A DNA stretch of 64,000 nucleotides from Candidatus Binatia bacterium (GTDB lineage: Bacteria; Desulfobacterota; Binatia; UBA9968; JAJDTQ01), in the NCBI GenBank assembly GCA_963666515.2, contig OY762897.2, forward strand, positions 2,048,001 through 2,112,000, given 5' to 3'. Positions 51,618-55,342 of this stretch are shown here, in pieces. Made by a program: the position numbers and the translations under genes. Numbering within the stretch: position 1 is the stretch's first letter; each line of letters begins with the position of its first letter. The notes beneath the pieces are model-generated. The model saw only the letters and a program-made list of their open reading frames with translations. It had not been told where the DNA came from and did no database searches.

Positions 51618-51983
51618 TCAATCCACGGGCGTGAGCACCTCGCTGGGAATGACCTCAATCATGCCGTTCCGCTCCGGGTCACGCACGACGCCGCGCGGGT
51701 CGCGGCCCTGGCGCACGCCGTCGGCGACCGTCACATCGAAGTCGCTCCAGTCCTCCTTCTCGGCTGCCATGGCGCGGTAGGTTTCTTTCCAGGACAGGCT
51801 GTTCGTTTCCTTGCCGTAAAGAAACACCCCATCCTCCACCTCTTCAAGGACAAGGGAATCGCCCCAACCGTACTTCTGCAAGAGGGCCTTCGGAAGACGT
51901 ATCCCCTTGGAGTTGCCCACCGAGACCAGCTTGACATCTCTCTTGACCGCCTTGTCACCTCTCGTGACCATTCCCTCACGCAT
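51618..51983 (-). CDS. AbrB/MazE/SpoVT-family antitoxin (orphan, aberrant C-terminus)
   Basis: KLVSVGNSKGIRLPKALLQKYG, SWKETYRAMAAEKEDWSDFD; GAGGAGG RBS. Confidence 0.8.
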   Translation of the reverse strand: MREGMVTRGDKAVKRDVKLVSVGNSKGIRLPKALLQKYGWGDSLVLEEVEDGVFLYGKETNSLSWKETYRAMAAEKEDWSDFDVTVADGVRQGRDPRGVVRDPERNGMIEVIPSEVLTPVD

Positions 51984-52010
51984 CGTCGAACACCTCCTCG
52001 GGCAAGACTC

Positions 52011-52049
52011 GGTAATTACTGTAATTACCTGTGTTGCTTGACTTCAAGC
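52011..52049 (-). promoter_or_regulatory. Antitoxin operator/promoter
   Basis: Palindrome GGTAATTAC-T-GTAATTACC (52011-52029) and GCTTGA-CT-TCAAGC (52036-52049); minus strand TTGAAG-18 bp-TACAGT. Confidence 0.6.
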
Positions 52050-52176
52050 GGTATCGTGGCTCGACTAGAATCCTTGATCGACAGGATCTTGACTCAGGAA
52101 GACAAGATATTTGAACTGGACTTCGTTCGTACATGAATACTATCGTAGGCCATCGCGAGTTGTAACGCTCGGTAGT

Positions 52177-53784
52177 TTAAGCGACGAGCTTCGCCTCATC
52201 GCAAATGGCATCGAGGTTCCTGGTGATGGCGGCAAAGCGCCGATGGGTCTTGGTATTGCCGCTCACGGCGTCGGGCGCAAGATGGGCCAGGCCGGGGCGA
52301 AGGATGCGGTTGTAGACACGCGTGTAGAACATCGCCACCTTGAGGCCGTGTTCGGTCAAGTGGTAGCGGTAGGCGCCGGGGATGCGCTCGATCAGGCCGT
52401 GCAGGCGCAGGCGTCTCAGGTCGTAACTCATTCGGCCCGGGCGCATTGGACTGGGATCGAGGCCCAGGAGTGCACCGAGGTGCCCGCGCAGGTCGCGGTT
52501 GGAGAAGCCGCGGGCCGAAAGAGTGAACAAGAGCAGGGCCTGCATCAGAGCCTGCACGCGCTCATCGGCGAAGCGCAGGGCCGAGGCGCGTTGTCCGTGG
52601 AACTCCAGGCCGCGTTGATGGCGTTGGAGTTCGTCTTCACCCAGGGCACAGTCGTGGCTGATGGTTTCTATCTGCAACAGACGACGGTTGGCTGTGAAGC
52701 CGACCTGGCACAACGCCGCCAGGTTAGACAGCCGCCGGCCCAGGGCGAAGTCATAGGTGTCGTTGACGGTGGTCTCGGTGCGCAGCGCCTGCCCTTCCTT
52801 GTGGTACTGCTTGATGCGCGAGTGCTTGTAGTCCACGTGCAAGGAAGGGGTGACGCCTGCGGTGATGACCCGGGTACGGAACCGACCGGGGGTGCGCCGG
52901 GTGACCCGGCGCTGGAAGATCAACTGCACCTGGCTGGGGCGACCGAGATCGAGGTTCTCGCGGATCACGTCCTCGAAAAAGACGCGGCCCGAGGCCGGGC
53001 GGTCGAGCACCTGGGTCAGGCTGAACTCCGCTTGCAGGATGGAGATGTCGTAGCGCAGACCGGCGCGACGGTCCTGAGGCGTATACGGATGCGGCAGGCG
53101 ATCGAACCACTTGCGCGCCAGTCTGTCGATGAAAGCGGCATCGAAGCCTTCGCAGATCTGTTGCAGCGCCTCGGGGTCTCCGCAGCAGCGCACGCCGTTG
53201 TCCAAAGCCTCGAACGGGATGCCGCGCTCGCGCAACTGGCACTTGGCGTACTCGTTGCCGTTGAGGCACAGCTTGCCGTTGTACGGGAAGTAGGTGCAGA
53301 ACTTGATGAAGAACGGCCCCGCCTGTTTGTCCACGCAATAGAAATACACATGGTTGACCATCGCGGTAGACGAGACCACCCACGGATAGGTGACCCCGGT
53401 GTCCGGGTTCCGGCGCCGCTCGGTGCGCATCACACGGGCCTTCTCCTGCGCTATCCCGATGTACAAAACCCCTTCGGTTCCCTTGAACCGCCCCAGGTAC
53501 TCCTGCGTCACCTCGTCCTTGCGCTGGCCCTTCTTGAAGTGCACCACCTCGATCTGCTCCCGCTCCGCAAAGTCCTTCACCGCCTGCACGAACTCCCGAC
53601 TCTTGGGCGCCAGCGCCACCGTCGACGCAAACCGCTGGCCATGGTGCTTGTGCAGATACCCCACTACCCCGCCCACGCTCTGCAACTGCGGCACATACAG
53701 GTTCAAGTACAGGCGATCCACCGACTCGTATTCCAGCGTCACGTGATCGCGCAATACTTCCGCTACGGTTTGTGGTAGGCTCAT
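52177..53784 (-). CDS. Putative transposase/replication-initiator-like protein with C-terminal winged HTH
   Basis: Start MSLPQTVAEVL (ATG 53784, GGAG RBS); ILQAEFS, IKQYHKEG..LRTETT (Rep_trans-like YxK...RxE), GFSNRDLR...YDLRRLRLHGLIERIP..RYHLT wHTH. Confidence 0.7.
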   Translation of the reverse strand: MSLPQTVAEVLRDHVTLEYESVDRLYLNLYVPQLQSVGGVVGYLHKHHGQRFASTVALAPKSREFVQAVKDFAEREQIEVVHFKKGQRKDEVTQEYLGRFKGTEGVLYIGIAQEKARVMRTERRRNPDTGVTYPWVVSSTAMVNHVYFYCVDKQAGPFFIKFCTYFPYNGKLCLNGNEYAKCQLRERGIPFEALDNGVRCCGDPEALQQICEGFDAAFIDRLARKWFDRLPHPYTPQDRRAGLRYDISILQAEFSLTQVLDRPASGRVFFEDVIRENLDLGRPSQVQLIFQRRVTRRTPGRFRTRVITAGVTPSLHVDYKHSRIKQYHKEGQALRTETTVNDTYDFALGRRLSNLAALCQVGFTANRRLLQIETISHDCALGEDELQRHQRGLEFHGQRASALRFADERVQALMQALLLFTLSARGFSNRDLRGHLGALLGLDPSPMRPGRMSYDLRRLRLHGLIERIPGAYRYHLTEHGLKVAMFYTRVYNRILRPGLAHLAPDAVSGNTKTHRRFAAITRNLDAICDEAKLVA

Positions 53785-53788
53785 GTCC

Positions 53789-53892
53789 GGCTCCGGTTGC
53801 TTCGGGCTTTTATGCCCATTTGACCCTTTGAGGTCCGACCTTGCAAGGTCCCATGACCAGGGATTCAATCCCTGCTACAAGCGACCGGAGCC
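53789..53892 (-). ncRNA. Candidate structured 5' leader RNA (or ssDNA structure) of the putative transposase
   Basis: 14-bp outer stem 53789-53802/53879-53892 enclosing four hairpins. Confidence 0.45.
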
Positions 53893-54094
53893 AATCCCCT
53901 TACCCCCTCGTCGGTCTGAGGCGAAGCCTCGCTAGTCGTCGGCAGCGCCGCGGATTGCTTGCCCGGAAAACCGCGGCATGATTTGATCGTAGCAGGTCGA
54001 GGCGGTCGAGACGCTAGTCGCCGTGGCCGCGAAGAGGATTCCTAAAGAGTGCTGGGGAAAGGGTAGCGGCCGTGCATGAAACAGGGAGGCGGCG

Positions 54095-55342
54095 GTGAAG
54101 CTCGCCAAACTTGCGGTGATGCTGCTGGCCACGGCCCTGTCGGGGGCCGCCTTCGCCCAGACAACCCTCGTCCTCGAAAGCTGGCGGGACGACGACCGAA
54201 ACGTCTGGCGGAAGAACATCATACCGGCTTTCGAGGCCGCCCATCCCGGCATCAAGGTGCGGTTCCGGCCTTCCGCACCGGCCGACTACGATGCGGCCCT
54301 GAAGGCCCGGCTCAAGGCGGGCGCGGCCGGCGACCTGATCGCCTGCCGTCCGTTCGATGTCTCGATAGCCCTCTACGAGGCCGGACACCTCGCCGACCTC
54401 GGCAATCTCGACGGAATGGCCCGTTTCCCGGGTGTCGCGAAATCGGCTTGGCAGACCGATGACGGGGCCGTAACCTTCTGCGTTCCCGTGGCGTCCGTGA
54501 TCCACGGGTTTCTCTACAACCGGGAAGGGTTCCGTAAACTCGGACTCGATGCGCCCGAAACGGAAGATGAGTTTTTCGCGATCCTCGAAAGAATCCGCAA
54601 CGACGGCGCTTGGCTCCCGATGGCCCTGGGAGTCCGCGACCGGTGGGAAGCCGCGACCCTGGGCTACAACAACATCGGACCTGTCTACTGGAAGGGCGAG
54701 GAAGGCCGTCGAGCCCTTGTCGTCGGCCGGCAGAAATTGACCGACGAGCCGTGGGTGGCCCCCTTCCGGACCCTGTCCAGGTGGCGCCGCTATCTGGGCA
54801 AGGGGTATGAGACGCGGACCTACAAGGACAGCCAGGACCTCTTCGCCCTCGGCCGGGCGGCCGTCTATCCCGCCGGAAGCTGGGAGATCGCTGGTTTCAA
54901 CGCCCGGGCCAAGTTCACGATGGGCGCCTTCCGGCCACCCGTGCGAAAGGCCGGCGACGCCTGCTACATCTCCGACCACACCGACATGGCCATCGGCCTG
55001 AATACCGCCAGCCCGAACAAGGAGGCGGCGCGCGTCTTCCTCGACTGGGTGTCTTCGGCCGCCTTCGCTTCGCTCTACGCGCGGGTGCTGCCGGGGTTCT
55101 TTCCGCTGTCGGATCATCCGGTGGAAATAAACGACCCGCTGGCCCGGACCTTCCTTTCCTGGCGTGACGAATGCCGTTCGACCATCCGTTTCGCGTCCCG
55201 CATCCTGTCGCGCGGAACGCCGAACCTGGAACGCGAGACCTGGAATGCCTCGGTCGCCGCGATCCGTGGCACGGCGCCCGCGCAGGAACTCGGCGCCCGG
55301 CTGCAGAAACAACTGGCACGCTGGTACGCGCCGCATCAGTAG
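54095..55342 (+). CDS. ABC transporter substrate-binding protein (sugar-binding SBP_bac_1 type), orphan
   Basis: GGGAGG RBS, GTG start, signal peptide AAFA|Q, ESWRDDD..W..IIPAFEA.HPGIKV, GDLIACRPFD, VPVASVIHGF.YN, YPAGSWEI. Confidence 0.9.
   Translation: MKLAKLAVMLLATALSGAAFAQTTLVLESWRDDDRNVWRKNIIPAFEAAHPGIKVRFRPSAPADYDAALKARLKAGAAGDLIACRPFDVSIALYEAGHLADLGNLDGMARFPGVAKSAWQTDDGAVTFCVPVASVIHGFLYNREGFRKLGLDAPETEDEFFAILERIRNDGAWLPMALGVRDRWEAATLGYNNIGPVYWKGEEGRRALVVGRQKLTDEPWVAPFRTLSRWRRYLGKGYETRTYKDSQDLFALGRAAVYPAGSWEIAGFNARAKFTMGAFRPPVRKAGDACYISDHTDMAIGLNTASPNKEAARVFLDWVSSAAFASLYARVLPGFFPLSDHPVEINDPLARTFLSWRDECRSTIRFASRILSRGTPNLERETWNASVAAIRGTAPAQELGARLQKQLARWYAPHQ

Follow-up and report, generated by a model that had tools for sequence, protein, structure and literature searches.

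We found that the single gene of a multicopy insertion-sequence-like element is preceded by a structured leader whose closing helix contains the Shine-Dalgarno sequence of the gene. The fold is conserved with covariation across relatives from many phyla and stands in a fixed register with the Shine-Dalgarno sequence and the start codon. Judging from the sequences, we give a probability of about one half to the reading that the leader is an mRNA element repressing translation, in which the Shine-Dalgarno sequence is paired with an anti-Shine-Dalgarno arm. The window is the whole stretch of 64,000 nucleotides of Candidatus Binatia bacterium DNA that was analyzed, and all coordinates are positions in it.

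Table 1 Features of the element and its leader in the window.
Feature	Position	Strand	Description
Whole insertion-sequence-like element	52065..53935	-	1871 bp; 9 identical copies, CTAG-bordered
Element 3' end	52065..52176	-	Conserved ...CTTG(A/T)C...GATCAAGGATTCTAG with hairpin; CTAG at 52065-52068
Only gene of the element	52177..53784	-	535 aa; ATG 53784-53782, stop 52177-52179
P1 3' arm	53802-53789	-	Sense AAGCAACCGGAGCC; holds Shine-Dalgarno GGAG (53794-53791)
Hairpin P4	53804..53817	-	GGGC-ATAAAA-GCCC; covaries
Hairpin P3b	53822..53835	-	GACC-TCAAAG-GGTC
Hairpin P3a	53837..53850	-	GACCT-TGCA-AGGTC; extra hairpin
Hairpin P2	53858..53874	-	CAGGGAT-TGA-ATCCCTG
P1 5' arm (anti-Shine-Dalgarno)	53892-53879	-	Sense GGCTCCGGTCGCTT; covaries with the 3' arm
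Purine-rich spacer, terminal hairpin to P1	53893..53917	-	Length differs among relatives
Element terminus (5' side of the gene)	53918..53935	.	Hairpin GAGGC-nnn-GCCTC; border CTAG at 53932-53935

Read along the sense (minus) strand of the gene, the leader runs through the P1 5' arm, P2, P3a, P3b, P4, the P1 3' arm and four bases to the ATG. Its overall fold is a five-way junction formed by the outer helix P1 and four hairpins. P1 has 14 pairs, one of them odd (G.T on the plus strand, C.A on the sense strand). The unpaired parts are apical loops of 3-6 nt and short linkers, without large internal loops. An earlier note on this DNA had described a 14-bp outer stem with one non-canonical pair, four inner hairpins, a GGAG ribosome-binding site inside the outer stem ending 4 nt before the ATG and, further out, a G-rich tract and a GCGAAGC mini-hairpin. 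All of these were present, the mini-hairpin at 53918-53930. The stem coordinates were right, and only the wording needed correction, in that gene and leader both lie on the minus strand.

RNAfold returned exactly this multi-branch fold for the 171 nt of 53770-53940 on the minus strand, with a minimum free energy of -70.9 kcal/mol. Shuffled sequences had a mean of -57.4 (sd 4.5; z = -2.98), and 2 of 200 folded as well, which makes the single-sequence fold only modestly unusual. In the window copy both strands of the 111-nt core folded equally well (sense -55.1, antisense -55.6 kcal/mol). A search of Rfam 15, which the earlier note had proposed as a check, found no family on the feature in 53000-54600 at E <= 1; the sole match there, IRES_Bip at 54024-54127, lay outside the feature and scored 19.6 bits against a gathering score of 40. 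The loci of six relatives, searched at E <= 0.1, gave only MIR6032 (29.9 bits against 102), which fell on the long terminal hairpin of locus L059.

For comparison, we fetched 80 loci from named genomes. The source taxa include Alpha-, Beta- and Gammaproteobacteria, Acidobacteriota, Actinomycetes, Verrucomicrobiota, Myxococcota, Armatimonadota, Anaerolineae, Tepidisphaerales and others. The relatives share a common upstream plan, consisting of a terminal motif, a variable spacer, and P1 around three hairpins. Four inner hairpins were found in the window copy and in two gammaproteobacterial relatives (L012 and L025), which have P3a in common; this hairpin is absent from most other clades.

The covariation among homologs that the earlier note had named as a test of its proposal was found in both types of alignment, and we regard conservation of the fold across relatives from many phyla as confirmed. 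RNAalifold, applied to a MAFFT alignment of 38 distinct leaders, gave 17 pairs, 13 of them with compensatory changes. When the named P1-P4 structure was imposed on the sequence-only alignment of the 38 leaders, 81.9% of 986 cells could pair, compared with 68.6% after shuffling. None of 500 shuffles reached the observed pairing, and sliding the partners by 1-3 columns reduced it to 26.1-50.2%. Both sides changed in 17 of 27 pairs (9 of 500 shuffles reached 17), and 146 cells carried a double change (reached by 0 of 500). These shuffle counts should not be read as probabilities, because the leaders are related to one another; the slid controls retain that relatedness, yet fall far below the observed pairing. 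A covariance model took in 51 of 51 loci at E <= 1e-7. In the resulting alignment, which is biased towards the structure that the model was built from, 85.6% of cells were paired (slid controls, 26.6-49.7%), and 21 of 26 pairs and 227 cells were compensatory. The earlier claim that the structure exceeds chance therefore stands, with the comparative pairing, and not the modest z of the single copy, as the decisive evidence.

The sequences of P2-P4 vary freely while their pairing is kept, for example from G-C to A-U or C-G in 16-24 sequences per pair. In P2, 5 of 5 pairs of the model-fitted alignment were compensatory, and in P3b 4 of 5 pairs. P1 also differs in sequence between clades and keeps its pairing, as in the arm pairs GGCTCCGGTCG/CGACCGGAGCC, GGCTCCGCTTGCG/CGCAAGCGGAGCC and GGAGCCCCGGGAGC/GCTCTCCGGGAGCTCC, the last of which has, by our reading, two single-base bulges. 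Its 3' arm always holds GGAG or GGGAG, and its CCGG core is highly conserved. The leader covariance model, run against 60 further genomes from the same order, 27 species of the genus among them, gave no match at E <= 1e-5; such a patchy distribution is what a mobile element would be expected to show. One match of 23 bits (G000:C1:2746754-2746864) lies inside an unrelated coding region and was set aside as chance.

The position of the fold is tied to the start of translation. The distance from the 3' end of P1 to the start codon is 4 nt in 31 leaders, 5 nt in 3, 7 nt in 2 and 8 nt in 15, and thus 4-8 nt in all 51, and P1 includes the Shine-Dalgarno sequence in all clades. The helix of the alphaproteobacterial clade continues, by our reading, past the Shine-Dalgarno sequence into the spacer that precedes the ATG. 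The terminal motif and the P1 5' arm, in contrast, are separated by 45 to 220 nt in the 43 loci with the motif inside 300 nt, and by 39 nt, on our count, in the window copy. This suggested that the start of translation, and not the end of the DNA, sets the position of the fold, and it is mainly for this reason that we rank a role in mRNA first. The earlier note had offered three readings of the structure, namely a translational repressor leader, an element-encoded noncoding RNA and a single-stranded-DNA origin, and the first fits best, given the spacing of the P1 3' arm.

From the fold and its register we infer that the leader acts as RNA, that it represses translation, and what might relieve the repression. 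The transcript would pair the Shine-Dalgarno region (CCGGAGCC) with the upstream anti-Shine-Dalgarno arm (GGCUCCGG) to form P1, closing a junction of three hairpins in most relatives and four in the window (about -55 kcal/mol for 111 nt). On transcripts carrying the full leader, including those that read through from neighbouring genes, ribosome loading would be blocked, because the Shine-Dalgarno sequence would be locked in the stable P1 fold. Synthesis of the transposase would then be very low unless P1 were opened or kept from forming. Relief could come, for instance, from transcription that starts within the fold, from processing of the RNA, or from a junction-binding factor. An alternative hairpin, GGCTC/GAGCC, could free the Shine-Dalgarno sequence, and was dropped as a general switch since by our reading it is found in one clade only.

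Control of this kind is known from other elements. In IS10 and IS50 (fold-back inhibition) and in IS200, through a stem-loop in the tnpA 5'-UTR, the transposase ribosome-binding site is occluded, and translation is thereby kept low, above all from read-through transcripts. In the fold-back inhibition of IS10 and IS50, the native promoter lies between the two arms, and only transcripts from outside fold. The leader described here shares with these systems a transposase ribosome-binding site that is paired to sequence further upstream, within the left end of the element. It differs in that P1 closes a conserved four- or five-way junction that covaries across phyla, and the protein and ends of the element are unrelated to theirs. 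In addition, unlike in IS10 and IS50, no promoter was found between the arms by a consensus scan or by our hexamer scoring. Occlusion of a transposase ribosome-binding site by a leader is thus a known kind of control, and the conserved multi-helix version is new.

The consensus promoter scan covered 51900-54100 and gave no sigma-70-like site, and our hexamer scoring of the left ends gave no promoter conserved across clades. In one betaproteobacterial subclade only, a weak candidate, GTGACT-N16/17-TAAGGT (7 of 12 matches), lies directly against P1. Several features sit uneasily with an mRNA role. A permanently closed, GC-rich P1 of 11-14 bp leaves no obvious route to expression, simple occlusion of the Shine-Dalgarno sequence does not need three hairpins conserved across phyla, and the left end yielded no family-wide promoter. 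A reading as RNA only also has to contend with the Watson-Crick covariation, which fits a fold of single-stranded DNA equally well, and with the window copy, in which the two strands are of like stability and the odd P1 pair is G.T on the antisense strand and C.A on the sense strand.

We compared the two strands with respect to stability and pairing. The sense strand was more stable than the antisense strand in 34 of 51 leaders with RNA parameters and in 41 of 51 with DNA parameters, and P2-P4 contain 44 G.U/U.G pairs versus 24 A.C/C.A pairs. These tests lean weakly towards the sense strand (p = 0.05 with RNA parameters, from sequences that are related to one another).

We characterized the element that carries the leader. 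The 4.67-Mb genome contains nine copies at 100% identity and one decayed fragment. All nine have CTAG on both sides and otherwise unrelated flanks, and CTAG is rare in the host genome (1201 sites). The two ends are not inverted repeats of each other, and no terminal inverted repeats are present. Seen from the gene, the leader makes up the complete left end of the element (151 nt). On the strand of the gene, the 5' terminus reads CTAA (CTAG in the window), C, the GAGGC-nnn-GCCTC hairpin and then AGACCGACGAG. This terminal motif was found in 53 related loci, representing 31 unique variants. Its stem covaries to GGGGC/GCCCC in three variants, and its loop is T-N-C on the sense strand in 25 of the 31, corresponding on the other strand to a C-GNA-G triloop, the GCGAAGC type of the earlier note. 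The C-GNA-G triloop is a very stable type of DNA hairpin. In an Acidobacteriota-rich clade the first 24 nt, including CTAA, recur about 35-45 nt downstream as a perfect inverted copy directly 5' of the cloverleaf, in which the loop changes are mirrored and compensated.

The 3' end has a conserved CTTGAC...GTCAAG hairpin and a terminal AAG-N3-6-CTAG block. The block was found in 51 of 56 loci, 45 of which also carry a CTTGAC-like arm; it is missing from L024, L054, L061, L062 and the truncated L038. In most relatives the left and right border tetranucleotides are unlike (CTAA versus CTAG), which makes a plain 4-bp target duplication unlikely. We identified a pair of contigs from another sample of the same organism that represents an empty site, in which 52066 is joined to 53935 with a single C between. 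This one instance shows 0 differences in the flanks and a depth of 6.4, equal to that of the flanks. The empty site reads CTCG, where CTAG is present twice in the occupied site. Provided that the contig is correct, a TA duplication is ruled out; CTCG also calls for a base change in any simple insertion model.

Assembled (Logan) contigs showed no circle junction, and no gene-less derivatives (MITEs) retaining the fold were found in five genomes. The terminal motif occurs 1-6 times per genome (five genomes), about as often as the gene and without excess. The right flank of the window copy matches genomes of the same genus only from query base 159 (77-83% identity), which indicates that the insertion point is not conserved. 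An empty site was also sought in three Burkholderia plasmids that share the flank of locus L091, and all carry the element in the same place.

The earlier note had called the gene a putative transposase. The label is reasonable for the gene of a nine-copy element, but the protein belongs to no described transposase family. Searching the 535-aa protein against Pfam and NCBIfam at E <= 0.01 gave no family, and thus no DEDD, TnpB, IscB or HUH. Only weak winged-helix families, and no PF02486 (Rep_trans), were returned when 27 family members were scanned with Pfam at E <= 1. PF02486 found nothing in the genome itself even at E <= 10, while control genomes gave matches. A family-profile search of PDB sequences gave weak winged-helix matches only (E >= 0.1), and the ESM Atlas returned only clusters named 'hypothetical protein'. 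A 555-aa open reading frame on the plus strand (52111-53778) was rejected as the antisense open frame that is usual in a GC-rich gene; all homology and fold evidence belongs to the minus-strand frame.

The family is large. At 90% clustering there are at least 8000 relatives, with 8000 of 8000 scored candidates at E <= 1e-3. Among representatives of 50% clusters, 10,355 matched at E <= 1e-3 and 1214 at E <= 1e-30. Many relatives are encoded on contigs about 1.8-2 kb long, and none has a name other than 'hypothetical protein'.

AlphaFold2, run with a 27-sequence alignment, gave a pLDDT of 84.2 for the full-length protein and 89.4 for residues 1-380. In the predicted models, a TBP-like or Rep_trans-like double lobe (about residues 15-377) is followed by a winged helix (about 380-505). 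Foldseek against the PDB matched four RepSTK1 4cij chains with probabilities of 0.96-0.99 and 4cwe with 0.69, all at low TM, and matched the C-terminus to MarR-type regulators. On re-alignment with VIA-align, TBP 1mp9_B reached Z 9.3 (rmsd 4.3, 175/189), and residues 380-505 matched PadR/MarR/ArsR winged helices at Z about 8-9. Independently of Foldseek, we searched the N-domain model against 48,161 chains. TBP 1mp9_B ranked first (Z 8.7, rmsd 3.9, 178/189 aligned), and the Rep_trans initiators 4cij_A (Z 7.4, rmsd 4.5, 185 aligned) and 4cwc_A (Z 6.9, rmsd 4.7, 179 aligned) ranked second and fifth. Ranks 3-4 and 6-7 were further TBP complexes, two and two; from rank 8 about 110 residues or fewer were aligned, many of these rows over one lobe only. 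The predicted fold is therefore a TBP-like double lobe with TBP and Rep_trans initiators as its nearest neighbours, at middling Z of 7-9.

Matches in BFVD include a phycodnavirus TBP (A0A2N9QVX7) and an inovirus protein (A0A345MNV4). Both are named as matches of the archaeal Rep-Arvir family in a 2026 paper (PMC13107129), where Rep-Arvir is described as a TBP-like catalytic domain plus a winged helix and Rep_trans enzymes are said to share the TBP fold. According to the structure paper on RepDE/RepSTK1 (PMC4797284), the catalytic Tyr is flanked by Arg and Lys on one beta strand (R189-Y191-K193), the following strand carries R212-x-E214, and the three carboxylate metal ligands come from different strands, an early one among them; the paper also states that Rep_trans enzymes act on hairpin or cruciform origins. 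In the family described here, K325-x-Y327-x-K329 and R335-x-E337 are invariant or nearly so and lie on predicted beta strands; the same holds for D23-R24 (first strand) and for Q113-E114 and Q251-x-E253 (further strands). The resemblance of this pattern to the Rep_trans active site is suggestive, and was read from alignments, not from a superposition. On these models, the protein looks like a DNA-nicking enzyme of a kind not known from transposons.

This raises the serious rival that the fold works as single-stranded DNA in transposition by a Rep_trans-like tyrosine nickase. The left-end fold would then be a docking or origin-like site for the transposase, or a priming site resembling a single-strand origin, and overlapping the ribosome-binding site would be a secondary matter or an additional use. 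We consider this reading possible and rather unlikely as the main explanation; the DNA and mRNA roles are not mutually exclusive. Consistent with it, the element lacks terminal inverted repeats, and subterminal hairpins are conserved at either end. The stem of the terminal hairpin shows covariation, the bias of its loop (TNC in 25/31) points to the other strand as DNA, and in one clade the 24-nt perfect inverted copy of the terminus stands 5' of the cloverleaf with compensated changes. On the side of the protein, TBP and the Rep_trans initiators head the matches of the N-domain among the 48,161 chains. The BFVD matches overlap those that PMC13107129 gives for Rep-Arvir. K325/Y327/K329, R335/E337 and D23 resemble the R-x-Y-x-K, R-x-E and first-strand Asp of Rep_trans enzymes, whose hairpin or cruciform origins are described in PMC4797284. 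On the other hand, the register of the fold is fixed to the start codon and not to the DNA end, and the P1 arms, about 85 nt apart, cannot pair in duplex DNA. Even at E <= 10 the Pfam Rep_trans model gives no match, the Z values of the fold comparison are middling, and the likeness of motifs does not come from a superposition. The searches for gene-less derivatives that keep the fold (five genomes) and for a circle junction among assembled contigs also count against it. The single-stranded-DNA origin of the earlier note, folded during rolling-circle transposition, thus gains some support from the predicted fold, the lack of inverted repeats and the subterminal hairpins, and is disfavoured by the start-codon register.

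We compared the element with known systems. With Rep_trans proteins (RepD/RepC of pT181-type plasmids, RepSTK1) and Rep-Arvir (PMC13107129), the predicted protein shares a TBP-like double lobe followed by a winged-helix or HTH DNA-binding domain, a similar set of Tyr, Lys/Arg and carboxylate residues on the predicted beta sheet, and putative substrates that carry hairpins. It differs from Rep_trans in having no sequence-level match to PF02486, and its gene lies in a 1.9-kb multicopy chromosomal element and not in a plasmid, phage or ICE. The element resembles IS200/IS605 and IS91/ISCR in its subterminal hairpins, its short conserved border tetranucleotide, and the lack of terminal inverted repeats and of any evident target duplication beyond that tetranucleotide. 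Unlike these HUH transposons, it has no HUH/Y1/Y2 domain and its protein has another fold, and the one CTCG empty-site contig misfits simple insertion beside a host CTAG.

Tentatively, and with a good deal less than even odds, the predicted models would allow a combined reading, in which the family of the leader is the first among insertion sequences to be moved by a TBP-fold, Rep_trans-like tyrosine nickase and the junction has a dual use, as a lock on the ribosome-binding site in mRNA and as a site in single-stranded DNA. If true, this would define a transposase class outside DDE, DEDD, HUH, serine, tyrosine-recombinase and Cas1. The junction in displaced single-stranded DNA would be worked on by the enzyme or by host priming machinery, and expression of the gene would be coupled to the transposition intermediate.

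A stand-alone noncoding RNA, serving as a guide or scaffold like the IS110 bridge RNA or the IS200/605 omega RNA, is improbable. The IS110 bridge RNA holds the same position, at the 5' end of its element. Like IS110, the element has a structured, conserved region of about 100-150 nt between its 5' end and the gene, no inverted repeats and the same short core at both borders; a conserved, covarying domain of about 100 nt at the 5' end of an element without inverted repeats would suit such an RNA, as would the lack of an Rfam family for the leader. However, the element encodes no DEDD, TnpB or IscB protein, and the predicted fold of its protein is TBP-like and not RNase H-like. The apical loops of 3-6 nt and short linkers leave no internal loops of a size to bear two guide segments. 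The nine insertion sites are unrelated and have only CTAG in common, so a long guide is not needed, and the 3' arm of the fold is the Shine-Dalgarno sequence of the gene itself. The analogy to bridge and omega RNAs drawn in the earlier note thus has little support. About as improbable is that the repeats are duplex-DNA operators, palindromes for a dimeric winged-helix auto-repressor for which folding is irrelevant: the protein has a PadR/MarR/ArsR-like winged helix at its C-terminus (Z about 9), hairpin stems are palindromic by nature and the CCGG core of P1 is highly conserved, but P2-P4 change sequence and stay complementary, which is the opposite of how sequence-specific operators behave, and the P1 arms covary across about 85 nt.

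In the literature searched, which left ISfinder and subscription journals outside its scope, we found no description of the element, its ends or a TBP-fold transposase. The surrounding element may represent a new transposase class.

The leader is a widely distributed structured element outside Rfam, with clear covariation and a closing helix formed by Shine-Dalgarno and anti-Shine-Dalgarno arms. Following it exposed a very large protein family, which counts over 10,000 representatives at 50% identity, behaves like a multicopy mobile element and has the predicted fold of rolling-circle initiators and not of described transposases. If the enzyme is a Rep_trans-like nickase, annotation pipelines would currently be missing a common insertion-sequence family, and a new transposition chemistry would be open to experiment.

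The occupied site in the window is bordered on both sides by CTAG, at positions 52065-52068 and 53932-53935. The corresponding empty site was found in one contig from run X2, which derives from another sample of the same organism, and carries CTCG, while its flanks are otherwise identical to those of the occupied site. No simple insertion or duplication model fits this pair of sequences.

A decayed fragment of the element with approximately 90% identity was found elsewhere in the same genome (G000:C1:2645416-2645643). In it, a portion of the leader together with the opening codons of the transposase-like gene is fused to a segment from the gene's interior, and the joint, from 53428 to 53756 in window positions, recurs in contigs from three runs.

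Open reading frames near or overlapping the element (window positions)
Feature	Position	Strand	Remark
ORF, 554 aa	57480-59144	-	Contains HPFEDGNGR
ORF, 513 aa	55917-57458	-	Adjoins the 554-aa ORF; NPPY motif
Small ORF	51618-51983	-	Adjoins the element's 3' end; begins VKLVSVGNSKGIRLPKALL
Open frame, 555 aa	52111-53778	+	Antisense to the transposase-like gene

We take the motif of the 554-aa ORF to be that of a Fic domain and, from its own motif, the 513-aa ORF to be a putative N6-adenine DNA methyltransferase. The start of the small ORF resembles AbrB/MazE-type antitoxins. The antisense frame is very probably no true gene but an artefact of the kind commonly seen opposite GC-rich genes.

Among the relatives from other genomes, six loci of an Acidobacteriota subclade (L038, L040, L046, L049, L051, and L087) have ATC, rather than ATG, GTG, or TTG, at the start-codon position behind GGAGCC-GAA. 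This ATC may be a weak non-canonical start. The element in this subclade also seems to reach farther 5' than the usual terminal motif, CTAA with a hairpin.

In one clade, seen at L059 (1057-1150) and 15 other loci of the L060-L090 group, the element's initial 24 nt are present again as a perfect inverted copy, which includes the border CTAA and adjoins the cloverleaf leader on its upstream side. Loop changes in the 24-nt terminus are matched by mirror changes in the inverted copy. Paired with each other, the two copies would form a long terminal hairpin in this clade.
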